This document shows positions 5,966 to 50,858 of a DNA stretch of 64,000 nt, one piece after another. Every line of letters starts with the position of its first letter. Position 1 is the first letter of the stretch. Origin of the DNA: Bacilli bacterium. GTDB taxonomy: Bacteria > Bacillota_I > Bacilli_A > RF39 > UBA660. The notes beneath the pieces were generated by a model that saw only the letters and a list, made by a program, of their open reading frames with translations, was not told the origin of the DNA and searched no databases. The stretch spans positions 13,462 to 77,461 of the forward strand of contig JAVBQF010000005.1 in NCBI GenBank assembly GCA_031549195.1. The letters run 5' to 3'. The position numbers and the translations under genes were made by a program.

Positions 5966-6526
5966 TTACTCCTCTTTATATTTTGATTCATATAAATCTT
6001 TATCATCAGTCTCTTCATATACTATTTTATCAAACTTAGGTAATTCTTCTTTTGACGCTAAACCAAAGTAATCTAAGAATTCGCTTGTCGTTGCATACAA
6101 TGTTGGCCTACCTATACTATCGCTTTTACCGACTTCTTTTACAAAGCCTTTAGCGCATAATCTTCTTACCATATCACGACTCCCTACACCCCTTATTTCT
6201 TCAATCATACTTACAGTAAGTGGCTCGTTATAAGCGATTATTGCAAGCGTTTCAAGTGCAGCTTGTGTAAGCGCATTTGTCTCTGGATTCTCTATTAATT
6301 TTTGATAATAATCCCTATGTTCTTTTTTAGTTGTTAGTTTAAAGCTATTACCAAGGAAATTGATTCGAATTCCCCTATCTTCCTTTTCATATTGTTCTCT
6401 TAATTCCATTACTAATGCTTTTGCATCCTCTTCATTAAGTTCTAATATATCTTCTATTTGATTAAGAGTAAGACCTTCATCTCCAACAACAAATAATAGA
6501 CCTTCTAATACTGCTAATTTATTCAT
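5966..6526 (-). CDS. scpB: Segregation and condensation protein B
   Basis: LEGLLFVVGDEGLTL...LETLAIIAYNEPLT typical ScpB winged-helix tandem; located downstream of scpA. Confidence 0.9.
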   Translation of the reverse strand: MNKLAVLEGLLFVVGDEGLTLNQIEDILELNEEDAKALVMELREQYEKEDRGIRINFLGNSFKLTTKKEHRDYYQKLIENPETNALTQAALETLAIIAYNEPLTVSMIEEIRGVGSRDMVRRLCAKGFVKEVGKSDSIGRPTLYATTSEFLDYFGLASKEELPKFDKIVYEETDDKDLYESKYKEE

Positions 6527-7236
6527 TATGCCACCTCACAGATAATTTCTCCAAATTTATCTTCTTGAGTAATTTTCAACTCATTCTTTCTAGCCATTTC
6601 AAGTATTGCCAAAAATGTTACCACTACATATTCTTTGGTTAAAACATCAAACAATTCAAGAAAATTAACTCTCTTTTTGATATGTAAAATATTTCTTATG
6701 GAAATTCTTCTTTCTTCTACACTTATCTCTTTTTTTGTTACCTTAGTACTTATCGGTTGATTTTGTTTTTGTCTCTCCAAAAATTTACTAAAAGCATCTA
6801 ATAAATCATCCAGGGTAACATCACTATTTTTTATTACATTATCATCTACATATTCAGTATAACTTGTAGGTAGTTTTGTAAATATTGTTTTTCTTTCTTC
6901 TTCTAAGTTCTTAAAAGCTTGAGTTAAATCCTTATATCTTTGATATTCAATTAATTTTTTAACTAAAGTCTCCTTAGGATCATCCTCTTCCTCTACTTCC
7001 TCTTCTCTTCGTGGAAGTAGCATTCTTGATTTCATTTCAAGTAATTCACTAGCCATCACCAAATAACTGCTTGCAATATCCAAATTCAACTTTTCCATAG
7101 CTTTAATATAAGCCATATATTGATCTGTTATTTTCTCAATAGATAAATCCAATATATTCATCTTTGATTCTTTTATTAAGTGAAGTAAAAGATCTAATGG
7201 ACCTTCAAATTCATCTATCTTAAGCGTATATTCCAT
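6526..7236 (-). CDS. scpA: Segregation and condensation protein A (likely start at internal Met MEYTLK)
   Basis: MEYTLKIDEFEGPLDLLLHLIKESKMNILDLSIEKITDQY is the conserved ScpA N-terminus; ORF-track start at 7305 adds an implausible 23-aa hydrophobic extension. Confidence 0.85.
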   Translation of the reverse strand: MEYTLKIDEFEGPLDLLLHLIKESKMNILDLSIEKITDQYMAYIKAMEKLNLDIASSYLVMASELLEMKSRMLLPRREEEVEEEDDPKETLVKKLIEYQRYKDLTQAFKNLEEERKTIFTKLPTSYTEYVDDNVIKNSDVTLDDLLDAFSKFLERQKQNQPISTKVTKKEISVEERRISIRNILHIKKRVNFLELFDVLTKEYVVVTFLAILEMARKNELKITQEDKFGEIICEVA

Positions 7237-7311
7237 ATAATCACTACCTATCATCATAATAATGATATCATAATTTTCAATTATTAAAAAGAAAAAGAAC
7301 TCCAATAGTCC

Positions 7312-7731
7312 TTAATCTTCTATAAATAAAATATTGTTATTAAAATCTTCTTTTAATTCTCTATAACTATTCTCATCACCAATAAAAATTACTTCGTCGA
7401 ACTTATCAATATGAGATAAGTAATTATTATAATTATTAGAGATGTCTAAGATAATAGATATATTTGATTTTAAACTTTCAAAATTCTTTATTAAATAATG
7501 AGATATTCCTAAATAGTTATTATTTGTAAATACTATTACATTCTTTATGTTATATAGAATTGCACTAACGATAACCTTGTATGTAATATATGGATTACCT
7601 TCTGATAGAACTAGTATATTATTTAAACCATTTAATTCCTTAAGTACTTTTATATTATCTTTAATACTTAATAAAAACTCCTCAATATTAAATATATCCC
7701 CCATTACTTCTTTATCGACTTCATACATCTT
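7312..7731 (-). CDS. Hypothetical protein (start uncertain; 7839 in ORF track would overlap upstream gene)
   Basis: Open frame with coding-like composition; no recognisable motif. Internal Met MYEVDK avoids 95-nt overlap with 7745..9388. Confidence 0.35.
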   Translation of the reverse strand, partial: KMYEVDKEVMGDIFNIEEFLLSIKDNIKVLKELNGLNNILVLSEGNPYITYKVIVSAILYNIKNVIVFTNNNYLGISHYLIKNFESLKSNISIILDISNNYNNYLSHIDKFDEVIFIGDENSYRELKEDFNNNILFIED

Positions 7732-7744
7732 ATATAGTATTTCT

Positions 7745-9388
7745 CTATTTTCCAGCAGAAGTTGTTGGTACTGCTCCAAGAGCTCTACATTTTGCACTAC
7801 TATCACCATCCAATGATTTAACACTTCCGAGTTGTTCACCTAAAATTCTAAGAGTATCTAAATGATCTGTTGTATATCCTGTACTATTAATTTCTCTTTG
7901 AACACGATCCTGCCATGTAGGAACATTTAGTCTTTTTTTAGTATGATAAATTCTCTTAACATTTGAATTTTCTGTACTATTTATACGTTCTAATATTTCA
8001 GGTTTTGATAACTGTGACAACTCGATAAAATTGTTAACTGACATTACATAAATAGCCTGCCCAGTTGCTGGTATATTACGTCCTTCATCTAAGTAAAATC
8101 TTTCAAATATTACTTTACCATTAGGATAAACATACCCAACATACCCAGAAAATTTATCTTTTCCTCTTAGTTTAATATCATATCCTGTACTATCAAAGCA
8201 AGCCAATTTTTCTTCCAATAACGCATTGGCAGATTCTTGTTCTAGCCTAAGTTCTTCAGAGCTTTTCCTAGTTTTCATTCTTAGTGACTGTGTCCCATTT
8301 GTTATTGATTCTATTTTTTCTCCTTCTGGTATAACTTCCCAGTTAAGTGCAGTCTCAGCAATAAGTGCCTTTCGTCTTGCAATCTCTTCTTCTCTTGCAA
8401 TCTCAGCCAATCGTTGTTCATATGCCTGACCCATTGCATCTTTTGCTCCCTGATAACTTCCAGCATAATCTATTTTTCCATTAAGTGTTTTATCTGGTGG
8501 CAATGAGTTAATAAATTTTGTGTATATCTCATTAAGTAAACTTGCTGTTACAGTAGTATCAAGTCCAGAAATATTAATATATCTTATTCTGCAACTTTTA
8601 TCTTCTTGACCTCTTAAACTATTTATTGCTAACAAAGTACTATAACCATCGTTAAGTAAGTCCCCAACAGTTTCATCTTTTATATTTCCAGCTACAAAAC
8701 TTTCATAACAAATTAAAAGTGCTAACTTTTCTAAATTAATATCGTCCAATATTGAATAATCCAATTCTCTATCAAGCTTCTCTATGAAATTAGGTAAATA
8801 TCTAATTAATTTAATTATTCTATTTTTTCTATATTCATTAAAATCCATAATAGTAGCTGTTGGATGATTCTTTTTAAAACGTTTATATTTACCCTTGGTA
8901 ATTTCTGACTCATCTGGTAAAGTTCTTATATCAAAACTTGCAACTTCTTTCCTTTTTTCCCTTAGGGATTCAATTATACGATTTAACAATTCATCATTAG
9001 ATAACGATAATACCTCATCCCTATCTATATTTAATTCTTCATATGCAATTAGTTTCGTTAATAAAGCAACTCTACATCCTTTAAATATTCTACGAGTTAA
9101 TTTATTATAATCATCTTTACAGTTAGGAGCAAGCTCGATTATCCAAAACAAATCTTCTGGCTGACAGGCTATATCACTATCTGTAATAATATCACCAGAT
9201 CCAGATTTCCACCAATTCAGTAATTTATTTTTTAGGTTTTCTTTTGCTTTTTCATTATCACAACACGCCAATAAACTTTCTATTGTTATAGGAACAGAAG
9301 TAGGATGTGGATAACTTAAGTTAATCAATGCTTTAACATCATGATTTTCAAATATTTTTGTATAATCAGGTAATTCTGATGCTTCCAT
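7745..9388 (-). CDS. Large hypothetical protein (547 aa), coiled-coil centre, no recognisable catalytic motif
   Basis: Long uninterrupted ORF with good RBS context; central AEIAREEEIARRKALIAETALNWE coiled-coil-like stretch; Cys-poor, soluble. Function unknown. Confidence 0.6.
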   Translation of the reverse strand: MEASELPDYTKIFENHDVKALINLSYPHPTSVPITIESLLACCDNEKAKENLKNKLLNWWKSGSGDIITDSDIACQPEDLFWIIELAPNCKDDYNKLTRRIFKGCRVALLTKLIAYEELNIDRDEVLSLSNDELLNRIIESLREKRKEVASFDIRTLPDESEITKGKYKRFKKNHPTATIMDFNEYRKNRIIKLIRYLPNFIEKLDRELDYSILDDINLEKLALLICYESFVAGNIKDETVGDLLNDGYSTLLAINSLRGQEDKSCRIRYINISGLDTTVTASLLNEIYTKFINSLPPDKTLNGKIDYAGSYQGAKDAMGQAYEQRLAEIAREEEIARRKALIAETALNWEVIPEGEKIESITNGTQSLRMKTRKSSEELRLEQESANALLEEKLACFDSTGYDIKLRGKDKFSGYVGYVYPNGKVIFERFYLDEGRNIPATGQAIYVMSVNNFIELSQLSKPEILERINSTENSNVKRIYHTKKRLNVPTWQDRVQREINSTGYTTDHLDTLRILGEQLGSVKSLDGDSSAKCRALGAVPTTSAGK

Positions 9389-13916: not shown

Positions 13917-14267
13917 TTAATTTTTTGCTTTAAACAATAAGCTGAGTATAAATGTAAATATGATTGCTGATGTTATTCCTGCTGCTGTTAAATCAAACAT
14001 GCCTGTGAATATTCCTATAAATCCTAAATCTGCAGCTTTTTCTAAAGCGCCATGTATTAGTGAATGTCCAAAACTTGTAATTGGTACTAAAGCACCGCCT
14101 CCGACATATTTGATTATTTCGTCATAAATACTAAAGGTATCTAGTGCTGCTCCAATAACTACAAATAAACTTGTAATATGCCCTGCTGTTAGTTTTGTAT
14201 TATCAAGTATTACTTGTCCGATTAAGCAAACCAATCCACAAAATAAGAACGAATATAAATACATCAT
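13917..14267 (-). CDS. spoVAEb: Stage V sporulation protein AEb
   Basis: 116-aa membrane protein; follows spoVAD with 4-nt overlap; GHITSLFVV...GGALVPITSFGHSL pattern shared with SpoVAC/AE family. Confidence 0.8.
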   Translation of the reverse strand: MMYLYSFLFCGLVCLIGQVILDNTKLTAGHITSLFVVIGAALDTFSIYDEIIKYVGGGALVPITSFGHSLIHGALEKAADLGFIGIFTGMFDLTAAGITSAIIFTFILSLLFKAKN

Positions 14268-15265
14268 TTTAACACCTCCAAGCTAACAGCATGAGCAATG
14301 GATAGAATGTTTTCTTTTTGAAATATAAATGTTGGTGAGAATAATGCTCCTGTTGCTACAACTAACACTTTGCTTAATTCTCCCTTTTCTAGCATCGGAA
14401 GTATTTTAGCATATGTCACTAATGAACAACAAGCTGGTCCAGAGCCTCCAGCCATGCATTCCTCTTGTTGATCAAGATCATATAGCAATGTTCCAGTATC
14501 ATTATAATTATTACTTATATCTATCCCATATTCACTATTCATATATTCAATTAATATCTCTTTCCCATATGTCCCAAGATCACCTGTCAATATCAAGTCA
14601 TAATAACCAGCTTCTCTTTTCATGTCTTCAAGATGTTTTTTTATTGTAGCACCTGCCGCTACTGCCATTGCCGCTCCCATATTAAGTGGATCATTTTGAG
14701 CCATATCACATATTTTACCAATTGTAGAAGACTCTACTTTTATTTTACCTTTATTTGACAAGAATAAGGATGCTCCTCCTGTTGCAGTGAATGTTGCTGT
14801 TTTAGGTTTAGGTGCTCCATATTCAGTAGGATTCCTAAACTGTTTTTCACTGGCCATATTATGTGAAGAAATAGCTGTAATACAATTTTTTATCTTCCCT
14901 GTATCTATTAGTGATCCACCTACTATAATTGCTTCCATACTAGAAGCACAAGCACTATATATGCCCAGATGTGCTATATTAAATTTTTTAGCAGCATAAG
15001 TAGAAGCGGTTGTTTGATTAAGTAAATCACCTGATATTAATAAATCAATATCTTTTTTATCTTTCTTAATCTTTTTTAAAAGAATATCTATACTTTCTTC
15101 TTGTAATTTGACTTCTGCCTTCTCCCAAGTATTTTCTCCATTATATAAATCATCGTATGACTTATCAAACTTTCCTTTTAATGGTCCATCGTTTTCATAA
15201 GGGCCGACTACTGTAGCATATCCATTTATAAAAACATTACTATATTTAAAAGTCATATTAAGCAC
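14264..15265 (-). CDS. spoVAD: Stage V sporulation protein AD (thiolase-like fold)
   Basis: 333 aa; KYSNVFINGYATVVGPYENDGPL N-terminus and thiolase-like Cys region; positioned between spoVAC and spoVAEb. Confidence 0.85.
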   Translation of the reverse strand: MLNMTFKYSNVFINGYATVVGPYENDGPLKGKFDKSYDDLYNGENTWEKAEVKLQEESIDILLKKIKKDKKDIDLLISGDLLNQTTASTYAAKKFNIAHLGIYSACASSMEAIIVGGSLIDTGKIKNCITAISSHNMASEKQFRNPTEYGAPKPKTATFTATGGASLFLSNKGKIKVESSTIGKICDMAQNDPLNMGAAMAVAAGATIKKHLEDMKREAGYYDLILTGDLGTYGKEILIEYMNSEYGIDISNNYNDTGTLLYDLDQQEECMAGGSGPACCSLVTYAKILPMLEKGELSKVLVVATGALFSPTFIFQKENILSIAHAVSLEVLK

Positions 15266-15701
15266 CTCCTAAAAATAAGTATCTTATCATTCCAAAGAAC
15301 CAAGCTGATACTATACCATATAAGATAACACTACCTGCAAGTTTGAAAATATTACTTCCAAGTCCATAGATTGGTCCTTCAGTTTTATATTCAATACCTG
15401 CACTTGTCATTGAATGTGCAAATCCTGTTATTGGAATGATTAAACCACACTTTGCAGCAGTTACCCATTTGTCAAAAAAACCTAGGGCAGTTAATACTGA
15501 TGCTACAAATACTAAGGTAACTATCATAAATACTGATGCATCTTTTGTAGGAATATCCAAATAATATGAATATACATCTATTAAAATTTGCCCTACTGCT
15601 CCAATCATTCCACCAATCATAAAAGAAATAAAAGCATTGTATGCTCTTTTCTCTGTTGGCTTATGTTTTTCTACTATTGTTTTATAATCCTTTTTTTCCA
15701 T
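15258..15701 (-). CDS. spoVAC: Stage V sporulation protein AC
   Basis: 147-aa 4-TM protein, paralogous to downstream SpoVAEb (GLIIPITGFAHSMTSAG), first gene of spoVAC-AD-AEb trio immediately downstream of sigF as in Bacillus. Confidence 0.8.
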   Translation of the reverse strand: MEKKDYKTIVEKHKPTEKRAYNAFISFMIGGMIGAVGQILIDVYSYYLDIPTKDASVFMIVTLVFVASVLTALGFFDKWVTAAKCGLIIPITGFAHSMTSAGIEYKTEGPIYGLGSNIFKLAGSVILYGIVSAWFFGMIRYLFLGGA

Positions 15702-15755: not shown

Positions 15756-16427
15756 TTAGCACGCTATTTTACTATTTAGCGTAGCTAATACTTTTGTTTC
15801 TCTTCTTGATACTTGTACTTGCGTCATCTTAAGTACTTTTCCTGTTTCACTTTGTGACATATCATTATAGAACCTTGACGTTATTAATAACCTATCTTGC
15901 TCTGGCAATTCCCCTATAGCCATTCTGAGTGCTGCAATATCATCATTATACCCTGGCTCTATATATGGAATTTGATCATGTAAACTTATTTCTTTTTCAC
16001 CAGTACTATCAGCTTCTTGATCAAGACTCATAACAAAGTCAGTTGCTATTTTAGCATCAACTAGCCTTTCTTCTGGAACTTCTAAATAACAAGCAAGTTC
16101 AAATGTCGTTGGTGGTCTTTGTAACTTTTGCGTAATCATATCCGCAACCTGATCTGCTTTTCTATTTAATGTTATTAATTTTCTATCAATCTTTATTAGA
16201 TTATTATCTCTTAAATATTTAAAAATAGAACCCGTTATAAAAGTATCTGCATACGTTAAAAAGGTATTCCCTTGGTTCTGATCAAATCCTTTACAAGCAT
16301 TAACAAGCCCAAGCATTCCTTGTTGATATAAATCATCTACATCTGCTATACGTGCATATTTTTGTGCTTTACTATATACATATCTCCCATATTTTTCTAC
16401 TAATTCTTCTTTATTCAATGTTTCCAT
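15756..16427 (-). CDS. sigF: Sporulation sigma factor, SigF-like (group 3 sigma-70)
   Basis: Region 2 DDLYQQGMLGLVNACKGFDQNQGNTFLTYADTFITGSIFKYLRD, region 4 HTH SQSETGKVLKMTQVQVSRRE; directly downstream of spoIIAA-like gene and upstream of spoVA genes. Confidence 0.75.
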   Translation of the reverse strand: METLNKEELVEKYGRYVYSKAQKYARIADVDDLYQQGMLGLVNACKGFDQNQGNTFLTYADTFITGSIFKYLRDNNLIKIDRKLITLNRKADQVADMITQKLQRPPTTFELACYLEVPEERLVDAKIATDFVMSLDQEADSTGEKEISLHDQIPYIEPGYNDDIAALRMAIGELPEQDRLLITSRFYNDMSQSETGKVLKMTQVQVSRRETKVLATLNSKIAC

Positions 16428-16438
16428 ATTATGCTCCT

Positions 16439-16783
16439 TTAAATATTAACTATATTAAATACACTTATTTCATTATTTGTTTCATAAATATCAGTTGTTA
16501 AATTACTACTCTCTATTTTTAATCTGACAATTTCACTAAATCCACATATAAATACTTTTCCATCATTATCCATTAACTTTTTACACTTCTCATTAATAAC
16601 TTCTATTCCACTATTATCTATTGAATAAAGCTTTTCACAATTAATAAGCAAATACTTTATACCAGCTTTAGAAATAATCTTTTCTAAAGTAGCATTCAAC
16701 TCATTACTAGTTTTTTCATTTAATATTCCTTTTAATCTAACAAAAAGAATTCCTCTTTTATATTCAATATCTATATTTAACAC
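16439..16783 (-). CDS. spoIIAA: Anti-sigma-F factor antagonist SpoIIAA (STAS domain)
   Basis: 114-aa STAS protein with phosphorylatable-serine motif YSIDNSGIEVI (cf. DSSGLGVI of B. subtilis SpoIIAA). Confidence 0.75.
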   Translation of the reverse strand: MLNIDIEYKRGILFVRLKGILNEKTSNELNATLEKIISKAGIKYLLINCEKLYSIDNSGIEVINEKCKKLMDNDGKVFICGFSEIVRLKIESSNLTTDIYETNNEISVFNIVNI

Positions 16784-16941
16784 TTATAGATTCACCTCGC
16801 ATATTCAATATAGAGCATATTTTATACATTTTATACAGATTCGACAAAAGTAGATTTTTTTTTGATATTACATTATTCGACAAATATGTTCTCTTAATAT
16901 TATGATAGAACTTATTTTGTCAATTTCCTCAAACAAAAAGG

Positions 16942-17469
16942 CTAAATTACATCGCCTTTTAACAAGTCACCAAAAGTTTTAAAGAAATACGAAATAAATC
17001 CTTGCTTTTCTACATCAGTATCTACTATTAACTCTATTTCCTTTAATGTTTTGTCTTTATATTTTATGATTAATTTACCTACTGCATCACCTTTATTTAA
17101 AGGTAATTTAATATCTTTATCTAATGATACTTCTTTAGTATATTCTACACTTACTTCTGATTTCTTACTTATTATTGTTACATCTTCTTTAGGATAAACA
17201 TTTACTTTACTGACACTCGATTTATTTAATTCTATTGTATCTATTACATCTGTCTTTTTATGTATAAGGGTAGACTTATATAAATTAAATCCATAGTCTA
17301 AAAGTGCTGTTGTCTCTTCATTTCTCACCTTACTTACAGCTTCGCCTAATACGATTGCTACAAGCCTTAAGTTATCCCTTTTAGCAGTTACAGACATACA
17401 ATATTTAGCTGCATCTGTAAATCCAGTTTTAAGTCCATCAGCACCCTCATAAAAACGTACTAGTTTGAT
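16942..17469 (-). pseudogene. dacF: dacF-like D-alanyl-D-alanine carboxypeptidase, C-terminal fragment (KTG motif plus PBP5 C-terminal domain) separated from its 5' half by the inserted element
   Basis: In-frame translation upstream of ORF-track Met reads ...LVRFYEGADGLKTGFTDAAKYCMSVTAKRDNLRLVAIVLG (KTG box); no SxxK/SxN part and no start/signal peptide here; the matching N-terminal half lies at 28331..28978. Confidence 0.7.
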
Positions 17470-17546
17470 TGTATGTTAATATTGCAATAACGAAAAATAC
17501 AAGTATTTATAAGGGTATTATAGAGGAAACAGAGATAAAAATCAAA

Positions 17547-20096
17547 TCAATTTTTAACTTTATATTCAGTAGTGAAATTTGTAATTATCATATCTCCTTG
17601 TAATTTAAACTGATTTAATAGTCTGTCCATTTCTATAACTTGTTTATAAAAATTAGGATCTGCAACATTTTCAGCAAAGTTAGAGATTGCACCTCTAAGT
17701 TTTTCAAGTAAATCTGGAGTCATGATGCGTATTTTAGGATTTGGAGAACAAGCGTGTTCAAATATATGACTATTATGTATCATCACGGGATAATAAGTAA
17801 ATTCGTTGCCTTCATATTCATTTTCAAACCAAGTAGCTGAACCATTCAATTGATTACAATCATGTTTATTAATTGTGTCTGTAGTAGTACCATTCTTACA
17901 CTCAATGACAAAATAAATACCATTTCCAATAACCCAAAGATTATCGGGACCTTTTCCATTGTCTGCTTCCGGACGAGATGAAGTTATTCCTAACATATGC
18001 GAAATATCTTTCAAAGAACTTTCAAAAGTTTCTGCTGTATCCACTGAAAATTCCAATTTTTCCAATAAGGTATTGGCTTTCAAAATATAAGAATTGGAAT
18101 CTAAATTGTTATCATTAATATAGTCTATTATTTTCTGTGCTTGCGTACCAGCTTTTTCAATAAGACGCTGATGTCTAATACCATCTAGTGGGCGAATTAT
18201 ATTTCTATTATATTGCTGTGCTGATAAAAGAATTTGCTGTGCCTCACCTTGATTTGAAAAGTTTGTATACTCAGCCAAAACTTGCATCAAAAATCCTTTT
18301 GTACTTTCGTCAGAAATAGTGTTTTTTGCTTTTTCTATAATTTTTGCTGCCTGAGAATATTGAAAAACTTCTGCACTTTCAAATGCCTCTCGCAAAGCAA
18401 CTGAAATATCATCTATTTGAGGACTTCTTTCATATGATAAAGAAGATAATGCATCTCTACTTGCTTTTATCCAATCAACGTTTCTTGGTAAATTTAGTGA
18501 ATAATTTGTTAAAGAAAATATCTCATCTATGCTAGGGTTAGGATTTCCCATTCGTAATTGATCCCATAATTGCTGAGACAATTCAAATTGTGCAAGCGTT
18601 GCTTTACTAAAATATTCTTTTCCATCCCCACGTATAAGAATATCTTTTAATCCTTTCCCCATAAACACAGCGACACAGTAATCATTATTGGAGCGAACTC
18701 CTCGACCGATACCCTGTTCAATTTTTTGAATTTTATCACTCAACAATCTTTTGTTATTTGGATTGATACCCAGCATTATCGCATCATATTTATTGGCAGT
18801 ATTAGCTACACCATCAATTACAAGAATACGACATGCATCATCTGGCAAATCTATTCCATCATATTTGTTTATTAAAACTACTAATCCAACATGCTCATTT
18901 TTAAGTTGGCTAACACCATTATCTATATTCAAATAATCTAAAGTTAAATCTGAAACATCACTCCAAAAAGCAGCTCTATTTCTAGACGGAACGATAACAA
19001 CAACATTATGAAGTAATGAAAGACTTTTTAATTTTAATTTAATTTCCACATCATTGATTCTTTTATTTATTACTTGAGGGAAAATTAATAAGCGATCTCC
19101 AATATCATTTGCTTTTTCAGGTGTAATTATATTTGTTATTTCGCTCTGTCTTAATCCCATTGCCGTAACAAAAACACTATCATCAGCCAAAGTTGCACTC
19201 ATAAATATTCTACGTTGTGCCTGTTCAAAACTTTTAATTTTTGATATCGGTATGCAATTAGGAGTAATTTCTATGCAACGAGCAGAAACTACACAGTTAC
19301 ACAACGATAAACAATCTTTTATTAAGGGTAGTTTAAACTTGATAAAATCCTTATCACTGTGCTTGTGTAAAATATCTCCAACTTCAGATACTTTATTTTG
19401 CCATACATAAAAAGGAATAAGCATATTAGTGAACGGGTCATGTATCTCTGAAATTTCTTGATATTTTTGATTTGAATATGATTTTAATGCTGTTGAAAAA
19501 ATAGACATTATTGAAGAATATACTTCTTCATCCTCTATAGGAATAGTTATCGTAAACTGATCACCAATAGTTTCTAAACATGCATGAGCATCATCTATCA
19601 AAATGCTACCAATATTAATATTATTATTATCTGAGCGCATACCAAAGACACTCTTACCATTAACTAGTTTATGAATATTGATTACAAGAATAGCTTGTTT
19701 TCTCATAAAGGGATAGTCTTCTTCATCTTGAACTACTTTGATACCTAATTTCTCTGCTTCACTACATACTTGCTGTACAAGATAATTATCTGGGACAACA
19801 TAAACTGCTGGGCCTTTTCCCTCATCAATACAACTTTTTAATATAGTAAGTCCTACAACTGTTTTACCACTTCCAGTATTCATTTTAATAATCGTATTTT
19901 TCTGTTCTCTACTTTCAAACCAAAGTTTCCAAACTTCACTTTGCACATCTCGTGGATATTCATAACTTTTATTCTTCGTTGGCAGTGACATAAAAATATC
20001 ACGTGGTTCTATACTTGATGGTGTTTTTTCAACACCCAATTTGCTAAAATCAATCATCACTTGTTCCTCCATAATATTTAACAAAAAAGATATCAT
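17547..20096 (-). CDS. SF2 DEAH-box helicase with C-terminal VRR-NUC (PD-(D/E)xK) nuclease domain, phage-type
   Basis: Walker A MNTGSGKTVVG, motif II ILIDDAHA, motif VI QGIGRGVRS; C-terminal GKGPDNLWVIGNGIYFVIECKNGTTT matches VRR-NUC G-PD...ExK. Confidence 0.75.
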   Translation of the reverse strand: MISFLLNIMEEQVMIDFSKLGVEKTPSSIEPRDIFMSLPTKNKSYEYPRDVQSEVWKLWFESREQKNTIIKMNTGSGKTVVGLTILKSCIDEGKGPAVYVVPDNYLVQQVCSEAEKLGIKVVQDEEDYPFMRKQAILVINIHKLVNGKSVFGMRSDNNNINIGSILIDDAHACLETIGDQFTITIPIEDEEVYSSIMSIFSTALKSYSNQKYQEISEIHDPFTNMLIPFYVWQNKVSEVGDILHKHSDKDFIKFKLPLIKDCLSLCNCVVSARCIEITPNCIPISKIKSFEQAQRRIFMSATLADDSVFVTAMGLRQSEITNIITPEKANDIGDRLLIFPQVINKRINDVEIKLKLKSLSLLHNVVVIVPSRNRAAFWSDVSDLTLDYLNIDNGVSQLKNEHVGLVVLINKYDGIDLPDDACRILVIDGVANTANKYDAIMLGINPNNKRLLSDKIQKIEQGIGRGVRSNNDYCVAVFMGKGLKDILIRGDGKEYFSKATLAQFELSQQLWDQLRMGNPNPSIDEIFSLTNYSLNLPRNVDWIKASRDALSSLSYERSPQIDDISVALREAFESAEVFQYSQAAKIIEKAKNTISDESTKGFLMQVLAEYTNFSNQGEAQQILLSAQQYNRNIIRPLDGIRHQRLIEKAGTQAQKIIDYINDNNLDSNSYILKANTLLEKLEFSVDTAETFESSLKDISHMLGITSSRPEADNGKGPDNLWVIGNGIYFVIECKNGTTTDTINKHDCNQLNGSATWFENEYEGNEFTYYPVMIHNSHIFEHACSPNPKIRIMTPDLLEKLRGAISNFAENVADPNFYKQVIEMDRLLNQFKLQGDMIITNFTTEYKVKN

Positions 20097-20120
20097 AATT
20101 TTAATGATATCTGAACTAGT

Positions 20121-20648
20121 TTAATTATAGCACATTCTTAGCTTTTTCTCCAGCTTATTTTGACATTTTGATACATTTCCTTGCTTACATCCTAATTCCT
20201 CTGCAAGTACCACCTGAGTCTTCTTATTACACCCTATTCCATATAAGTTTTTAATTAGATAACCATCTTCTTTATTAAGTACATTATCTAATAAATATTT
20301 AAGATAATTTAATTGTTCATCTAATATTATTTTTTCTAATATATCAGGTTTATTACTTTCTATAATATCTTCGATAGTTATGCCTTCTCCTATTTCAGTA
20401 CTTAAAGAAATACATATTAGTTTTGATTTCTTTAAAGTATGTAGTATTTGATTTCTAATACAAGTATAAGCATATGTAGAAAAAGATACATTCTTATCTT
20501 CTTTGAATGTATCTACTGCATTAATTAATCCTATTACTCCTTCATTGGTTAAATCTTCATAATCATTAGAATTAATTTTTATATTTAATTTCTTTAATAC
20601 AAAATAAACTAGAGATAAGTTATTTAAAATAATTTCATCTCTAGTCAT
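20121..20648 (-). CDS. Sigma-70 family sigma factor (phage/element-encoded, 175 aa)
   Basis: Region 2 NEGVIGLINAVDTFKEDKNVSFSTYAYTCIRNQI; region 4 HTH KKTQVVLAEELGCKQGNVSKCQNKLEKKLR. Confidence 0.7.
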   Translation of the reverse strand: MTRDEIILNNLSLVYFVLKKLNIKINSNDYEDLTNEGVIGLINAVDTFKEDKNVSFSTYAYTCIRNQILHTLKKSKLICISLSTEIGEGITIEDIIESNKPDILEKIILDEQLNYLKYLLDNVLNKEDGYLIKNLYGIGCNKKTQVVLAEELGCKQGNVSKCQNKLEKKLRMCYN

Positions 20649-21141
20649 TAGATTCTCCTATACAGGAATGAATAAATTTCTTCATCTCTTCTTGTTCTTC
20701 TAAAGTAGCGTTTTTGCTTTCACACCTAACTCCATTCCAAAGCATTACTCCATCAGTATCATAATCGATTATTTTATTATTTATATTATTTTTATAGTTA
20801 TTATTATGTCTATCTCTTGGAATAACCTTTTTATTATCTCTAGGAATAATATTACTATATTCCTTTGACCATACATCATCATTTAAAAAGATATACCTTT
20901 TACTTCTATTAGGTATATCTTTCTCATATTTAACATTTATTAATTTTAAATCTTTTAACTTTTTAATTGCTACTGATATAGCATTATTTTTAACACCATA
21001 CATATTAGCAAAATAGCTGTTAGTAGCATAGCAACATTTATTTATGTGACATAAAGCTGTTATTCTTTCAAAGATTAATTTATCTAGGAAAGATAATTCT
21101 TTAGTCTTATATACTTTTTCATCTACAATAGTGTAAATCAT
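20641..21141 (-). CDS. Winged-helix/HTH protein, phage replisome-organizer (DnaD-like N-terminal) type
   Basis: LSFLDKLIFERITALCHINKCCYATNSYFANMYGVKNNAISVAIKKLKDLKLI resembles N-terminal HTH of phage replication organiser proteins; overlaps sigma-factor start by 8 nt (operon). Confidence 0.5.
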   Translation of the reverse strand: MIYTIVDEKVYKTKELSFLDKLIFERITALCHINKCCYATNSYFANMYGVKNNAISVAIKKLKDLKLINVKYEKDIPNRSKRYIFLNDDVWSKEYSNIIPRDNKKVIPRDRHNNNYKNNINNKIIDYDTDGVMLWNGVRCESKNATLEEQEEMKKFIHSCIGESND

Positions 21142-21173
21142 TATATATTTAGTAATAATAAACTCCTAGATAG

Positions 21174-21344
21174 TTATTCATTAGAAAAGTCCTTATCTTT
21201 ATAACTATCATATTTTAATTTAGTAATATAACCTATCTCTAATAATTCAATCATTATTTTAGATATTGGTTTATTGTAAAACTTAGCCATTAGTTTTATT
21301 CTTTCAAATAATTCTAATCTAAGCCAAAATTCAAATCTCTTCAT
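21174..21344 (-). CDS. Small (56 aa) putative ribbon-helix-helix/regulatory protein
   Basis: ATG preceded by AAGGAGGAG RBS; MKRFEFWLRLELFERIKLMAKFYNKPISKIMIELLEIGYI... ; not in ORF track (below length cutoff). First ORF after the long leader. Confidence 0.4.
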   Translation of the reverse strand: MKRFEFWLRLELFERIKLMAKFYNKPISKIMIELLEIGYITKLKYDSYKDKDFSNE

Positions 21345-21817
21345 TTAACTCCTCCTTCTATTATGGACAATTATTTACTTTATTTTAGCAATATTTATAA
21401 AAGCAGGATAAGATGATTACGTAACTCTACTGATTATTACCTTATTTCATGAGAAATCAGCTTACGTAATTTCTTATTTTGCACTTGCAAAATTGTCCAT
21501 ATTGTTTGTTTTTTTTATCCATGATTTGAAACATTCCCTTGATTTAAAAGGAAATATAAGCTTTATAATTATCCATTCTAATATCCATAAACATACTTAC
21601 AATTAAAAAAGTATGGATATTTTCATTCATAACGATCACCTCCTAAAATACAAAATAATTTCATGAAAAAAGTGACCACTTCATTTAGTAATCACTTCAA
21701 CTTATAACTATTTCTATTATATCAAGCATAGCACCCCGCAATAGTTCATGCAACGCCTATTGCACTACGAATGCACTACTAATATGTATCTATATAAGTA
21801 CTATTTCGTGTGATACT

Positions 21818-21846
21818 ATATTATACTTATCACCGGTTCTTTTCAA
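21818..21846 (-). promoter_or_regulatory. Sigma-A-type promoter (TTGAAA-17nt-TAATAT) reading leftward into a ~470-nt leader
   Basis: Minus strand reads TTGAAAagaaccggtgataagtaTAATAT with exact 17-nt spacer; followed by GC-rich hairpins, an 8-codon uORF with perfect RBS, and two TTACGTAA palindromes before the RHH-like gene. Confidence 0.5.
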
Positions 21847-21883
21847 GCGCATTTCGGTTTTATTTGGCATGAATTCGGTTTAT

Positions 21884-22687
21884 TTAATTATTATTTGTAT
21901 ATTTACTTAATATTATATCTTTTTCATTTTTCAAATTTTCTATTTCTGAGTTTCTAAATGCACTTAGCAATAGTACAAAAATAAGATCCATCATTTCTAA
22001 TCTATCCTTATCTTTTAGATTATTGTATCTTAAGTCAGTTCTTTTCTTCTCATTGTGTCGAAATAAATTGTTTGAGATTTCTCCAATCAAATTACTGAGA
22101 TCTTTAGATACATTCCCCCTAATACTTTCAAACTTTTTATATATTAAAAATAATATTTTTTCTTTTTCTACAATATTAGTGCTAATTTTAAAGTCACAGT
22201 ACTCGATTAATAATTTTCCTGTATTTTCTGGGACAGTTTTCAACGTTGCATCAAGGTCAGCATTTTTTCTAATAAACACATAACCATCTTGATCAGTATT
22301 TGCTTTTGTTTCATATCCCATTTTTGAAAGAATGAAATGTATGTTATCAATTATTAATGTTTCTACTTTTTTTAATTCAGTGCTTATAGGGTAAAGTTTG
22401 TTAAGTTTATTATGAAAAATTATTATATTGAAGAGAAATTCCATTGTAAGCAAAGCTCTGTTCTCATTAGTCTTACTATATTTTTCTATCTTATCTTGAA
22501 ATTCCTTGCAATTTATGCATCCACATCGGTATTGCCACGAGCTAAAGCAAGTATAATCAATTTGTTCTGATGGTGATCCATAAGCCTGAACTCCTGCTAC
22601 ACCATTTATATAGAAAATTTCGTATAATTTCATTATTTCTTCATCCAAGTCAATATCCTTTGTATATAATTCAAAAATATTTTTCAT
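21884..22687 (-). CDS. Hypothetical protein (267 aa), possibly Abi-like
   Basis: Clean ORF, Cys cluster FSSWQYRCGCINCKEF near N-terminus; no assignable family. Confidence 0.5.
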   Translation of the reverse strand: MKNIFELYTKDIDLDEEIMKLYEIFYINGVAGVQAYGSPSEQIDYTCFSSWQYRCGCINCKEFQDKIEKYSKTNENRALLTMEFLFNIIIFHNKLNKLYPISTELKKVETLIIDNIHFILSKMGYETKANTDQDGYVFIRKNADLDATLKTVPENTGKLLIEYCDFKISTNIVEKEKILFLIYKKFESIRGNVSKDLSNLIGEISNNLFRHNEKKRTDLRYNNLKDKDRLEMMDLIFVLLLSAFRNSEIENLKNEKDIILSKYTNNN

Positions 22688-22782
22688 TTTTCCATCACCG
22701 CTTCCTTTAATAATTAATTTATTTTACTTACAATAATTACATCAGATTTAATTTCCATTCTATTTCATATAATTACTATTTT

Positions 22783-24654
22783 TTATCTACTACATCTTGA
22801 TTTAAAATATTTTTGAAGGTTTTTATCTTCACACCAAATATAGCAACCCTTCATTCCTCTAGTCATCAAAGTACGATATGTGTTTTTAATTATTAAGTCA
22901 GCTTGTTTTTGAGCTTCTATAGGATTTTCAGCCATTAATTTATTAATCCCTTTTAATGATTGATCTGTTTTAGCTCTTTTTGTATAATCAGTTACAATTT
23001 GTCCATTTTCATATCTTATATCTTTTCCAATTATAACCCCAACATAATCAAATTCTAAACCTTGACAAGTATGTATGCAACCCGCTTCATTAACTGAATT
23101 AGCATCTATTGCCCATGTTTGAGAATTACCTAAATTCCAGCTCATATTAAAGTCATATTCAGGAATAGTAATATCGTAAATTTCAGATTTGTTTTTTCCT
23201 TCACTTATCCAGTTCCAGCAATAACCAGCAACAACCCTAGATTTATTATTTATTCTATTTTTTTCTACTATTTGGTTTCTCAGTTCACATGGACTATCAA
23301 TTACTTTAAAATCATAATCATAGTCCATATCATCGAAATTAGCAGTATTTCTAATATCAAGCATTTGATCTAACCATGCTAGATATCCATCTGATCCATT
23401 ACATCTAAATTGGCTCTCTAAATCTACTATTTTTATGCCTGCTCCTAATTCATTAGCATATTTTTTTATTAGATCTACTGTTCCGACATCTTTCAAGGTT
23501 ACTTTTTGATTCTCATCAATAAAGAAAACTGAAAAGTTAGAGGCTTTAATTATTTCCTTAACTTGATTCTCTCCTAAATTTGAAAACAGTCCAGATTTAG
23601 CATTTAATCTATGGGCTTCATCTACAATCAAACAATTAATTTCATTGTTATCAGATTCAGTAAATGACCCTGATCCTTGAAATAGATTATTTATATATGT
23701 CATTTTAAATGTTCCTTTTAGCTTGTCTCTAAATACTGCTCTTGGAGCGCTATTTTTTGTGACATAAAAACTTGTCATGTTTCTTTTAGTAAATTCTACT
23801 AACAAATTTATAGCTAAAACAGATTTCCCTGTTCCAGGACCACCTTGAACAATAAATACTGTTTTATCATCTGCTGCAATAGTATCTATTGCTAATCTAA
23901 TTGCATCTTCATAAATAACTTTTTGTTCATCAATCATATTAAACTCTTTGCTTCCTTTTAACATCATTGATAAAGAGTCTTGAAGTCTCTTAGATGGTCT
24001 TATTCTTCCATTTTCAATTTTATATAAAAGTTCTCTATCATCACCTTCGAAAATATATCTTTTAATAAAAATTCTTAATTTATCAAAATCATTAGTACCA
24101 AATAATGGTGCAGCATCTATATACTCTTTATACTGCTCACTATTTATTGGATCACTTTCTTGTAAGTCATAATTATGTAGAAATGCACATGGATATAAGC
24201 CTATTTCTTCTAGCTGTACAGTTTCATTAAAATCTCGTATTAAATTAGCATAGCTCATTGCTTGATATGAAGGATGTGCAACTTCTCTTATTCCGTGGCC
24301 TGTATAAGTTGATACAATTCCATCTTTACCATCTACCGCTGTACACGTTTCCCATTGTTTTAGTTCAACAATAATTACTGAATCTTTTTTATTTTTATCC
24401 TTACCAGATAATATAAAGTCTATTCTTTTTGATGTTGTAGGAATATTAAATTCTATTGCAACTCCACAATTACCAGGTATTTCTCCATCATCTAAGACAC
24501 CTCTCATATATTGCATAGAATTCTTCCACGAATTTAATTGAGATTCACTTGTTTTTCCAAAAAAATGTTTATATTTATCATAAATCTTGTTAACAATCAA
24601 ATTTAAATTTACATCATTAATAAACTCAGATTTAATTCCTTCATATACTAGCAT
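22783..24654 (-). CDS. DUF2075/Schlafen-like nuclease-ATPase: N-terminal PD-(D/E)xK (Mrr-cat-like) domain fused to SF1-like P-loop helicase core (Nhi-like architecture)
   Basis: N-terminal DSVIIVELKQWE (D...ExK); Walker A FIVQGGPGTGKSVLA; Walker B CLIVDEAHRL; C-terminal VVAGYCWNW region typical of DUF2075 proteins. Confidence 0.7.
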   Translation of the reverse strand: MLVYEGIKSEFINDVNLNLIVNKIYDKYKHFFGKTSESQLNSWKNSMQYMRGVLDDGEIPGNCGVAIEFNIPTTSKRIDFILSGKDKNKKDSVIIVELKQWETCTAVDGKDGIVSTYTGHGIREVAHPSYQAMSYANLIRDFNETVQLEEIGLYPCAFLHNYDLQESDPINSEQYKEYIDAAPLFGTNDFDKLRIFIKRYIFEGDDRELLYKIENGRIRPSKRLQDSLSMMLKGSKEFNMIDEQKVIYEDAIRLAIDTIAADDKTVFIVQGGPGTGKSVLAINLLVEFTKRNMTSFYVTKNSAPRAVFRDKLKGTFKMTYINNLFQGSGSFTESDNNEINCLIVDEAHRLNAKSGLFSNLGENQVKEIIKASNFSVFFIDENQKVTLKDVGTVDLIKKYANELGAGIKIVDLESQFRCNGSDGYLAWLDQMLDIRNTANFDDMDYDYDFKVIDSPCELRNQIVEKNRINNKSRVVAGYCWNWISEGKNKSEIYDITIPEYDFNMSWNLGNSQTWAIDANSVNEAGCIHTCQGLEFDYVGVIIGKDIRYENGQIVTDYTKRAKTDQSLKGINKLMAENPIEAQKQADLIIKNTYRTLMTRGMKGCYIWCEDKNLQKYFKSRCSR

Positions 24655-24658
24655 AAAT

Positions 24659-24982
24659 TTACTCCTCTTCTAGTTTATTGTATTTTGTACTTTTCCCTTT
24701 CGACTTGTCTATGGGGTATTTCAATCTAGTTTTTTCTAGTTTTTCTAAAACAATATCTTCTAAATTAACATTTAATTTATTTGCAAGCAATATACAATAA
24801 TTAAGAACATCAGCTAATTCTTCGCAAACTTCATTATGGTCAAATTCAGAATTCCACTGAAAGCACTCCAATAGTTCTCCAGCTTCGATTGAAATTGATT
24901 TAGCTAGATTCTCTGCACTATGAAATTGATCCCAATCACGTTCTTGATTAAATTTAATTATTTCTTCTTTAACCTTATCCAT
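24659..24982 (-). CDS. MazG-like nucleoside triphosphate pyrophosphohydrolase (small all-alpha NTP-PPase)
   Basis: FNQERDWDQFHSAENLAKSISIEAGELLECFQW with downstream EELADVLNYCILLAN match MazG/HisE-type EExxE...D motifs; likely start at MDKVKEE (24982). Confidence 0.7.
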   Translation of the reverse strand: MDKVKEEIIKFNQERDWDQFHSAENLAKSISIEAGELLECFQWNSEFDHNEVCEELADVLNYCILLANKLNVNLEDIVLEKLEKTRLKYPIDKSKGKSTKYNKLEEE

Positions 24983-25090
24983 ACTACAAACATCCTCCAA
25001 TAATACTTTAATTATATCACAAAACCAGTCATTATCTCGACAAATAACGACCAATATTTATTTTTAATATCAAAAAAATCACTATTTTTA

Positions 25091-25297
25091 TTAAACGGTG
25101 ATTTTGTTATTTTTTTCTTTAATGTATTTATTATTATAATTACTTTTATCTGCAAAATATTCACATTTATTTGTTTCATTATCATAATTAGTTTTCATAA
25201 AATAAGATTGTAATTTTGCTGATTTTGCAACGTATCTAATACAGTTCCTTTTTAAAGGGCACTCTTCTCCTAAGCACATTGTTATATCTAAATCCAT
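25091..25297 (-). CDS. Small Cys-rich (zinc-ribbon-like) protein, 68 aa
   Basis: MCLGEECPLKRNCIRY...NKCEYF four-Cys arrangement; tightly packed between fic and mazG-like genes. Confidence 0.4.
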   Translation of the reverse strand: MDLDITMCLGEECPLKRNCIRYVAKSAKLQSYFMKTNYDNETNKCEYFADKSNYNNKYIKEKNNKITV

Positions 25298-25313
25298 ACT
25301 ACTCCTCTTATTT

Positions 25314-26159
25314 TTAATCTATATTAGAATCTTCAATGACTAAATCATTATTACTCAATTTATTTATTCCATTATTAAGTAGGTTCTCAAAAAATTTTAT
25401 TAAATATTCGTTTGTTTGATATATATTTTTAGACCTATTAGAATAATTACTTCTAACTAAAGCATTTCTAAAATATAAGGAATGTTCTTTAAATAAATCA
25501 TTGTTAACATTATATCCAAGACTTCTTAAATATTTTTCTATCATAACTGCAACAGTTCTAGTATTCCCTTCTCCAAAAGGATGAACTTGCCAAATACTTG
25601 AAGTAAATATCGCAATATGTTCTATTTGTTCTTGTATAGTTAATTTAGAATAATCATATCCCATTTCTTGCTTAAAATCATATTCATAGGTTCTTTCAAT
25701 TTCATTATAATCCGCATAAACAACTGTATCATTTTGTAATATAGGTTCATCTTTTGTAATATTATAAGTTCTATACTTTCCTGCAAAATCATAAATACCT
25801 TTGAATAAGTATTCATGTATTGATTGCAATGTTATTGGCCTTAATGAAAAGCTATTATCATTTAATAATTCAACTATTCTAGTTGAAACTAAATCACATT
25901 CTTGTTCATTAGCTATTTTTATATCACTTAAGTCTTTAGTTTTATAATAACTATGAAGAGACTCCTCTACTTCATAGTTAGTTATTTCGCCCTCCACGTT
26001 TTTATTAACTAATTCTTTTAGATAATTAGAAGGAGTCAAACCATCGACTTGTTGTAATCCAATTGCCATATTCCAATATAATTGTTTCACATAGCTATCT
26101 TTTGTTTCATCAATCTTTTTATATTCAATCTCATCGTTCATCTTAATTACTCCTTTCAT
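25314..26159 (-). CDS. Fic/Doc family protein (AMPylation/adenylyltransferase fold)
   Basis: Canonical Fic motif HPFGEGNTRTVAV (HxFx(D/E)GNGRxxR). Confidence 0.8.
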   Translation of the reverse strand: MKGVIKMNDEIEYKKIDETKDSYVKQLYWNMAIGLQQVDGLTPSNYLKELVNKNVEGEITNYEVEESLHSYYKTKDLSDIKIANEQECDLVSTRIVELLNDNSFSLRPITLQSIHEYLFKGIYDFAGKYRTYNITKDEPILQNDTVVYADYNEIERTYEYDFKQEMGYDYSKLTIQEQIEHIAIFTSSIWQVHPFGEGNTRTVAVMIEKYLRSLGYNVNNDLFKEHSLYFRNALVRSNYSNRSKNIYQTNEYLIKFFENLLNNGINKLSNNDLVIEDSNID

Positions 26160-26273
26160 AAGTTATATATATTATATCATTTTTAAAGCAATAAATATAC
26201 TTTATACATCGAATTAAGTATCAAAAAAGTCACGACTTTCGTGACTTAAATTCGATTTATTAGATAAATACTT

Positions 26274-26591
26274 TTATATTATGATTGGTAATACGTTTAA
26301 TGCTGTCAATAGTAGCATTAGTAAATACATTACTCCTAGTGTTACCATATAAATAAAGAAATAAATTATAGAACCTAAAGTTGGATTGCTTCCTCTATCA
26401 TAAAACTTTCCAGTTATAAAATAACTAATAGCCCATAATATAGAATATAATGATACTACTTCCAAAAGAATATTATTATAAATTGGATTCTTTAATATCG
26501 GAATATTATCAATAGTGCAATAACACAAATAAGCTCTTATTAAAAAACTAATTCCGCTAACGATTGGATACATAATTACCAGACCTCCCAT
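26274..26591 (-). CDS. Small membrane protein (3 TM), hypothetical
   Basis: 105-aa hydrophobic ORF directly downstream of recombinase gene. Confidence 0.35.
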   Translation of the reverse strand: MGGLVIMYPIVSGISFLIRAYLCYCTIDNIPILKNPIYNNILLEVVSLYSILWAISYFITGKFYDRGSNPTLGSIIYFFIYMVTLGVMYLLMLLLTALNVLPIII

Positions 26592-26636
26592 TTAGTTAAT
26601 TATTATATCATAAAACTAAAGGAATCTAGCCGTTTT

Positions 26637-28079: not shown

Positions 28080-28330
28080 AGTAAGTCCTCCTATTTATCT
28101 ATTAAATAGTTGTACTTCTTTCTTTTAATATTCTTGGAACACTGGTATTCATAAAAAATTTCATAATTTCTATTTGTAGTTCTTTTGGTAGTTTAATCTT
28201 CATAAACATTCCTCCATTCACTACATTATAGAAGTTTTAAAATTAAATATTCCTCCTTTTTCTTTGTTCCAAAAATACAACACCCGTTTATAACCTTATT
28301 TTATAATGGTTTACAGGCGTTATTGTAATA

Positions 28331-50850: not shown

Positions 50851-50858
50851 GAGGTAAA

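Follow-up and report, generated by a model that had tools for sequence, protein, structure and literature searches.

A SpoIIAA-derived STAS gene directly upstream of a SigF-type sigma gene, without spoIIAB, in a clade of uncultured Bacilli

Organization of the locus

A spoIIA-type locus with a SpoIIAA-derived STAS gene directly upstream of a SigF-type sporulation sigma gene, and with no spoIIAB gene between the two, is encoded on contig JAVBQF010000005.1 of a Bacilli bacterium (assembly GCA_031549195.1). We analysed a 64-kb stretch of this contig (hereafter the window; all positions are in the numbering of the whole stretch). The spoIIA-locus genes discussed here are all on the minus strand where, from upstream to downstream, the order is a 3' fragment of dacF, a 158-nt intergenic region, the STAS gene, the sigma gene, spoVAC, spoVAD and spoVAE. 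The STAS gene (16439-16783) encodes a protein of 114 aa and has a GTG start codon with the ribosome-binding site GAGGTGA. The sigma gene (15756-16427) encodes a divergent, fast-evolving protein of 223 aa with Sigma70 regions 2, 3 and 4. Between the TAA stop codon of the STAS gene and the ATG of the sigma gene is a spacer of 11 nt, AGGAGCATAAT (16428-16438). This spacer constitutes the ribosome-binding site of the sigma gene and is too short for any middle gene. The first-pass annotation of this DNA had placed the end of the STAS gene 11 nt before a SigF-like gene, with no room for spoIIAB, and direct reading of the sequence confirms that layout.

The genes spoVAC (15258-15701), spoVAD (14264-15265) and spoVAE (13917-14267), each identified by Pfam and NCBIfam matches, are the downstream neighbours that anchor the orthology of the locus. 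A further synteny anchor downstream is formed by scpB and scpA (5966-7305, minus strand; Pfam SMC_ScpB and SMC_ScpA). An identical gene order is present in an independent Logan assembly of run SRR23967709, and six close relatives (loci L002, L087, L088, L089, L090 and L091) share the STAS-to-sigma junction. An assembly artefact or mis-join is ruled out by the independent Logan contig and by the recurrence of the junction in these six species.

Absence of spoIIAB from the window and from related genomes

No open reading frame (ORF) of the window matched a hidden Markov model (HMM) built from the SpoIIAB proteins of related loci. Searching the 64 kb by tblastn with 38 SpoIIAB sequences returned only scattered noise (best E = 0.28), and hmmsearch --max over all stop-to-stop fragments of the six frames reached at best E = 8.8. 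The HMM used in the six-frame search was trained solely on true SpoIIAB sequences. We identified no coding remnant or pseudogene of SpoIIAB, or of any GHKL protein of this kind, in any of the six frames of the window. The first iterated version of the HMM had drifted, and its matches of 350-650 aa in L026, L027, L030, L034 and L035 are membrane histidine kinases.

Searches for relatives with the sigma protein gave one match at 55% identity, the remaining matches being at most 40% identical. The STAS protein gave closer relatives, on long contigs. No SpoIIAB match was found in the 85.6 kb around L087, L088, L089, L090 and L091. A scan of species representatives (one genome per species) yielded at least 80 loci, which were sorted by script; the genome of the window is not represented among those listed. 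Among the matches listed, 42 loci from AT-rich metagenome-assembled genomes (MAGs) have either a STAS gene and a sigma gene (28) or the sigma gene alone (14), and never spoIIAB. These MAGs are labelled at NCBI as Bacilli, Mollicutes, Tenericutes, Mycoplasma or Erysipelotrichaceae. All 38 Clostridia loci among the matches listed, plus L006, have the order STAS-spoIIAB-sigma. Median GC content of the loci listed is 26.5% without spoIIAB versus 48% with it. No GHKL serine kinase/anti-sigma factor accompanies the STAS and sigma genes in the 42 listed loci or the six close relatives, where only membrane histidine kinases were matched. The operon without spoIIAB noticed in the first pass is thus supported twice, by the negative six-frame search of the window and by the clade-wide absence of the gene at the locus. 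The comparison with related genomes that had been proposed at the time now comprises six close relatives and 42 listed MAG species, all without spoIIAB at this position.

In a neighbour-joining tree, the sigma factors from loci that lack spoIIAB group together as one cluster, although this tree is crude, unbootstrapped and unstable in its rooting. The order dacF-STAS-sigma-spoVAC/AD/AE-...-scpAB is common to the window and its relatives. Downstream of the sigma gene, spoVAC, spoVAD and spoVAE are found in the same order in 39 of the 46 loci without spoIIAB, and scpA-scpB follow spoVA in L087, L088, L090, L091 and many other such loci. Clustering of the neighbourhoods of the 46 loci revealed no new conserved small gene that might stand in as an anti-sigma factor. 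The only recurrent neighbours are spoVA, scpAB and genes for exported proteins of 364-461 aa (no Pfam annotation; context of two loci).

Some lineages depart from this order. In a sub-clade labelled Tenericutes (L026-L034 and L042; e.g., L032, 4836-5930) both the STAS gene and spoIIAB are gone. The order there is rearranged to spoVAC-AD-AE, then a gene for a 364-aa exported protein rich in Lys and Tyr, then the sigma gene. In L003, L008, L015, L019 and L045, the dacF position upstream of the STAS gene is occupied by a gene for an exported protein of about 460-490 aa without a Pfam match, possibly related to the 364-aa protein.

A published gene-content survey of the orders RF39, RFN20 and ML615J-28 found spoIIAB and spoIIE reduced or absent in RF39, and described a stepwise loss of sporulation genes in these orders (Field, Bowerman & Hugenholtz, 2024; PMC10868615). 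The bare absence of spoIIAB in RF39 is thus already known. The survey reports presence and absence only, and does not cover a STAS-sigF operon, loss of the phospho-acceptor serine, selection on the STAS gene or Spo0A boxes. In the literature searched we found no description of a retained SpoIIAA that is non-phosphorylatable, under selection and coupled to sigF behind Spo0A boxes.

The STAS protein

The 114-aa protein matches the Pfam STAS family with E = 2e-14, which dispels the earlier reservation that a profile search might not recognize it as a STAS protein. It passes the superfamily model TIGR00377 (56.1 bits, cut-off 53.45) and falls below the cut-off of the SpoIIAA equivalog TIGR02886 (56.5 versus 114.75). 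The sequence aligns without gaps to Geobacillus SpoIIAA (1TH8 and 1TID). An AlphaFold2 model computed with 36 relatives as input (predicted local distance difference test score 88.6) has SpoIIAA chain 1THN_B as its nearest fold in the PDB, with a template modelling (TM) score of 0.92 and a root-mean-square deviation (rmsd) of 1.5 Å. The SpoIIAA chains of 1THN, 1TID and 1TH8, which come from complexes with SpoIIAB, are the top PDB folds (TM 0.90-0.92, rmsd 1.4-1.6 Å). The gene is the first of the operon and upstream of sigF, as in spoIIAA-spoIIAB-sigF with the middle gene absent.

The residue equivalent to the phospho-acceptor S58 (motif FMDSSGIG), located by alignment to the STAS profile, is Ser in 39 of 39 operons with spoIIAB. 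In operons without spoIIAB it is another residue in 31 of 32 cases (K, E, I, T, D, N, Q, V, H, Y, G or L). The protein of the window has the motif D-N-S-G, in which Asn falls on S58, a register confirmed by the S58A mutant chain in 1TID. The Ser that follows this Asn is not conserved, since the closest relatives have DHNG, DNDG, DDEG or DEIG, and no Ser or Thr is conserved at the phospho-site among the 36 STAS relatives. As judged from these alignments, the STAS protein of the window is without a canonical phospho-acceptor site, and the first-pass description of its DNSGIEV motif as phosphorylatable has to be withdrawn. The loss of the kinase gene and the loss of the serine are correlated, and this is indirect evidence that no SpoIIAB-type kinase encoded anywhere in these genomes acts on the STAS proteins. 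For the organism of the window, spoIIAB is probably absent from the whole genome. One option raised earlier, a modified partner switch that has lost its kinase, fits these results, as the gene is missing clade-wide and the phospho-acceptor serine has been lost along with it.

Twelve residues do not vary among the 36 STAS relatives. Pairwise ratios of nonsynonymous to synonymous substitution (dN/dS) of the STAS gene within the clade are 0.07-0.5, in the same range as those of the sigma gene, and are 0.16-0.21 for the window gene against its relatives; these ratios are approximate because synonymous divergence (0.6-2) is partly saturated. Such ratios indicate that the STAS protein is under purifying selection. 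Since the SpoIIAA fold is kept as well, the protein would have a function that is independent of phosphorylation. The distance from the STAS stop to the sigma start is -4 to +14 nt in nearly all of the 28 STAS-sigma loci listed, which implies coupled translation.

The sigma factor

The best NCBIfam equivalog for the sigma factor is spore_sigF (TIGR02885; 139.7 bits), although the score is below the cut-off of 321.45. Other equivalogs score lower (SigG 114-119, SigB 100), and the SigB/F/G subfamily model gives 166.3 against a cut-off of 234.35. Among PDB sequences, the best match is chain C (SigF) of 1L0O, a SpoIIAB-SigF complex (E = 2.7e-30). The gene is located downstream of dacF and the STAS gene and upstream of spoVA, as in canonical loci, and the dacF/spoIIA-spoVA neighbourhood order is that of Bacillus and Clostridia. 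By position the protein is the orthologue of SigF, with synteny settling an orthology that the scores indicate. Identity as SigG or SigB was considered and is ruled out by synteny and by the best-family scores. The SigF-like assignment made in the first pass is thus upheld by family model, structure match and synteny alike, and the suggestion that 223 aa is short for a SigF is not, given that sigma ORFs of 203-248 aa are present in loci with spoIIAB, including those of Clostridia, as well as in loci that lack it.

The sigma factor is unusually divergent. Against L087 (10361-11026) and L088 (10416-11081) it is 40-43% identical with dN/dS of 0.51-0.56, far below the identities of STAS (56-62%) and SpoVAD (72-75%) in the same comparison; SpoVAD has dN/dS of 0.12-0.18. 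Within the sub-lineage of the window, the STAS protein is better conserved (56-68% identity) than the sigma factor (40-43%). More than 20 positions that are otherwise invariant in canonical SigF are changed in the sigma factor. Among these changes is the loss of a region 2.4 Glu that is invariant in sigma factors with spoIIAB and 93% conserved in those without it. Per-column conservation shows that the extra divergence of sigma factors without spoIIAB, relative to those with it, is concentrated in regions 2.1-3.0.

Spo0A-type boxes upstream of the STAS gene

Two copies of the Spo0A-box-like site TTGTCGAA are present in the region upstream of the STAS gene, 36 nt apart and on the coding (minus) strand. 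The proximal copy (16840-16847) is 57 nt and the distal copy (16876-16883) 93 nt upstream of the STAS start codon. The site occurs three times in the 64-kb window, where 0.79 copies are expected. It contains TGTCGAA, which we take to be the Spo0A-box core, the consensus being one from B. subtilis work. Of 34 loci lacking spoIIAB, 28 have at least one TGTCGAA within 250 nt upstream of the STAS gene; the background frequency is 0.03 per 250 nt. Usually there are two copies, both in coding-strand orientation, and in most relatives the proximal copy is found near -59. The two copies are 26 nt apart in 11 loci and 36 nt apart in 6, spacings that differ by one helical turn. We argue from the conservation and phasing of these pairs that the operon may still be wired to the master sporulation regulator, and would thus not be a relic. 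Promoters of the sigma-F or sigma-G type upstream of dacF and spoVAC, sought by eye, were not convincing and are not used here.

The third copy of TTGTCGAA (61285-61292, minus strand) is located about 175 nt upstream of a gene encoding a DivIVA-domain protein (60742-61110, minus strand). A gene for class B RNase P RNA (60402-60742, minus strand; 267 bits) adjoins the 3' end of the DivIVA-domain gene.

Comparison with known systems

The closest known system is the SpoIIAA-SpoIIAB-sigma-F module of Bacillus, Geobacillus and Clostridia (1L0O, 1TH8, 1THN, 1TID). The two share position, with dacF upstream and spoVA downstream, the SpoIIAA fold (TM 0.92 to 1THN_B), a sigma factor nearest to SigF (1L0O_C) and Spo0A-type boxes upstream. 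The locus in the window differs in lacking a gene for SpoIIAB, in the replacement of S58 (by Asn), and in that both proteins score far below their NCBIfam equivalog cut-offs (56.5 versus 114.75 and 139.7 versus 321). The RsbV-RsbW-sigma-B switches are also similar in having a STAS gene directly upstream of a group-3 sigma gene, and RsbV and RsbS folds resemble the STAS model with TM scores of 0.68-0.84. Systems of that type, however, always have an RsbW-type kinase/anti-sigma factor and a phosphorylatable Ser or Thr, both of which are missing here, and synteny places the locus with spoIIA rather than sigB.

There is a precedent for control without phosphorylation in M. tuberculosis, where the anti-anti-sigma factor RsfA acts on UsfX. 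The UsfX-RsfB complex 8IH8 is among the fold matches of the STAS model. RsfA and the STAS protein of the window are alike as STAS antagonists that do not depend on serine phosphorylation, but RsfA still acts on the SpoIIAB-like UsfX, and no such partner is encoded at or near the locus.

A kinase-free spoIIA variant and its alternatives

We consider it probable that the locus is an ancient kinase-free variant of spoIIA in a deep clade of uncultured Bacilli with AT-rich, small genomes, and that its STAS protein modulates sigma-F without phosphorylation. According to this model, the ancestor of the clade would have lost spoIIAB, by deletion, from its place between spoIIAA and sigF. Phosphorylation would then have dropped out of the partner switch, and S58 of SpoIIAA would have drifted to almost any residue. 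Sigma-F would be made, with translational coupling to the STAS protein, from a promoter with two conserved consensus Spo0A boxes, and its output would be set mainly by Spo0A-driven transcription. The STAS protein may modulate sigma-F by stoichiometric, phosphorylation-independent binding, either to sigma-F/RNA polymerase or to an unlinked protein. The binding attributed to the STAS protein is our inference, as is sporulation in these bacteria.

Several points weigh against this model. We know of no cultured member of the clade and of no sighting of its spores. Its identity, most likely GTDB order RF39, is drawn from gene content and NCBI labels; RF39 fits better than RFN20 or ML615J-28, as these are described in PMC10868615, because spoVAD is present and spoIIAB absent. 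The scan of the clade for spoIIAB covered about 600 kb around the locus rather than whole genomes. All comparators with spoIIAB are Clostridia, and the point of loss within the Bacilli is bracketed only by the literature, in which Turicibacter (Erysipelotrichales) has both spoIIAA and spoIIAB. A single ancestral loss is a tentative proposal from the unbootstrapped neighbour-joining tree with its unstable rooting. Spo0A dependence of the operon is likewise presumed from boxes that are consensus matches only. The absence of the STAS gene in 14 of the 42 listed species makes it dispensable in some lineages. The fast evolution of the sigma factor and its lost region 2.4 Glu could reflect relaxed function. 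Finally, of 46 sigma columns that are conserved where STAS is present, only one relaxes in the four lineages without STAS; no sigma surface is thus seen to relax, which gives no support for direct contact between the STAS protein and the sigma factor and is weak evidence against it.

If spoIIAB had merely been relocated, SpoIIAB and SpoIIE would be encoded elsewhere and a normal partner switch would operate. Gene relocation is common in reduced genomes, our data cover 64 kb of the genome in question and, for each relative, 5-20 kb, and the window encodes a 275-aa protein with weak PP2C matches (3180-4007; E = 5e-4 and 2.4e-4). A working kinase would nevertheless hold the serine in place, and Ser is lost in 31 of 32 STAS proteins of the clade while being kept in 39 of 39 operons with spoIIAB. 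The roughly 600 kb of clade sequence contain no SpoIIAB match, and the survey of RF39 finds spoIIAB and spoIIE reduced or absent genome-wide (PMC10868615). Relocation is the least credible of the explanations and we regard it as very unlikely. A little less improbable, although still distinctly unlikely, is that the locus is a decaying relic: sporulation would be in the course of being lost, the STAS and sigma genes would be future pseudogenes, and there would be no regulated sigma-F pathway. The rapid divergence of the sigma factor in the sub-lineage of the window (dN/dS 0.51-0.56; about 40% identity versus 62% for STAS and 72% for SpoVAD) would be expected of such a relic, as would the loss of STAS in 14 of the 42 listed species, the interruption of dacF in the window (see below) and the stepwise loss of sporulation genes in these orders (PMC10868615). 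Yet every ORF is intact in all species examined, and STAS, sigma, SpoVAD and the two dacF segments all have dN/dS ratios well under 1 (synonymous divergence 0.6-2.4). Across the clade the Spo0A-type boxes keep their phasing and translation stays tightly coupled, and spoVAC/AD/AE are retained next to the sigma gene.

The STAS protein might itself be the regulator of sigma-F, binding it directly as an anti-sigma factor or chaperone in a two-protein system that replaces SpoIIAB. The 1:1 translational coupling (spacer -4 to +14 nt in the 28 listed loci) speaks for this, and so do the stronger conservation of STAS than of sigma in the sub-lineage of the window and the 12 invariant residues in 36 relatives whose phospho-sites vary freely. 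To our knowledge, canonical SpoIIAA of B. subtilis does not bind sigma-F, which is established for that system, and the lack of a sigma surface that relaxes on STAS loss argues in the same direction, so that we rate direct binding as unlikely, if less so than a relic. A broader form of the proposal is doubtful to about the same degree or slightly less: the SpoIIAA-derived STAS protein would act directly on sigma-F or on RNA polymerase, as part of an order-wide two-protein STAS-sigma module that, together with Spo0A-driven transcription, would operate without SpoIIAB, SpoIIE or phosphorylation. If direct STAS action were true, the locus would offer a minimal, naturally occurring substitute for the textbook partner switch.

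The kinase-free variant that we favour bears on how sigma-F is controlled. In the textbook account, the SpoIIAB kinase/anti-sigma factor explains the silence of sigma-F until the septum forms. SpoIIAA, SpoIIAB and SpoIIE have been counted among the core proteins regarded as universal in endospore formation (Galperin et al., 2022). An old and large clade that keeps sigF, spoIIAA, spoVA and Spo0A-type boxes under selection, yet has dropped the kinase and the phospho-site, would imply either that cell-specific activation of sigma-F is achievable in another way or that it is unneeded in a simplified sporulation programme. It also raises the question of what role a STAS antagonist has once its anti-sigma factor is gone. 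For annotation, predictors that require spoIIAB, or equivalog-level matches to SigF and SpoIIAA, will misjudge these abundant gut lineages.

An integrated element that splits dacF

The first-pass annotation read the locus as dacF-spoIIAA-sigF with dacF at 16942-17469. The gene order stands, but what had been taken as dacF is only its 3' fragment, and the 5' part lies beyond an island of 10,879 bp. The 3' segment (16942-17463, minus strand; 174 codons) encodes the KTG motif and a PBP5_C domain, by its match to that family; its translation begins in-frame at ..KLVRFYEGADGLKTG, with no upstream ORF. The 5' segment (28343-28969, minus strand; Peptidase_S11 E = 5e-62) encodes the signal peptide and the SxxK and SxN motifs. 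The island between them (17464-28342, minus strand) has ends placed to within 3 nt, owing to a shared AAA core, and these carry an imperfect 17-bp terminal inverted repeat, TTAATATT(A/G)CAATAACG. At the end of the island next to the 5' segment is a gene for a large serine recombinase of 480 aa (26637-28079; Resolvase, Recombinase and Zn_ribbon domains; CcrB/XisF-like). Excision of 17464-28342 in silico at the shared AAA gives an uninterrupted DacF of 385 aa with SxxK, SxN and KTG, and a predicted attB of ..AATACCAATAAACTAGTACG.. in the restored gene. Alignment with intact homologues places the junction at the same codon. The dN/dS values of the segments against relatives (0.03-0.10 for the 5' segment, 0.20-0.33 for the 3' segment) indicate that both are under purifying selection.

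In L087 (5792-9840) and L088 (2194-9894), dacF is split at the same codon, between ..WLVNTNK and LVRFY.., by elements whose recombinases are 75-76% identical and whose size and cargo are different. In L090 (8268-9437) and L091 (5138-6238) dacF is intact, and thus an empty site. L087 and L088 have recombinases that have diverged further from each other (75%) than the hosts have (86-92%), and the recombinase tree departs from the host tree. Given this excess divergence, the data fit a mobile family that turns over at one target site better than one inherited element.

The element resembles skin and SP-beta in having a large serine recombinase at one end, in splitting a sporulation gene and in the restoration of the reading frame by precise excision. 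It is unlike them in that their known targets are mother-cell genes, and in having dacF as its target, a defence cargo and an occupancy that varies between relatives. In B. subtilis dacF belongs to the forespore genes, a point against the classical scheme of excision in the mother cell. Gene-intervening elements in sporulation genes include skin in sigK, SP-beta in spsM, gin in gerE and yin in yabG (PMC5595907, PMC4191935, PMC10747680). We found no paper in the literature searched that names dacF as a target of such elements.

The cargo of the island (17547-26159) looks like a defence island, with several candidate defence genes. An 849-aa DEAD/ResIII helicase corresponds to the PADLOC candidate system PDC-S28 (E = 6.6e-298) and a Fic protein to PDC-S72 (E = 2.5e-91). 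A 623-aa helicase of the Schlafen-group-3 type, with weak matches to AbiO, Nhi and PDC-S41, adjoins a MazG-like protein. Also encoded (20121-21141) is a 175-aa sigma-like protein beside a small helix-turn-helix protein. Pfam recognizes only region 2 in the sigma-like protein; the best NCBIfam matches are SigK-like and span most of its length, and there is a weak match to MzaA. A homologue with 55% identity is present in the L088 element (7585-8431), and the pair is thus a conserved module of the element family.

Other features of the window

The 275-aa protein at 3180-4007 (minus strand), whose PP2C matches are to Pfam PP2C_2 (E = 5e-4) and NCBIfam Stp1 (E = 2.4e-4), is far smaller than SpoIIE and would be relevant only as a possible leftover phosphatase. 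Also present on the plus strand (48844-52313) are two neighbouring genes for large secreted proteins with cadherin-like beta-sandwich domains. One of these proteins has a type I dockerin domain at its end, an unexpected feature for a small-genome organism of the Bacilli type.

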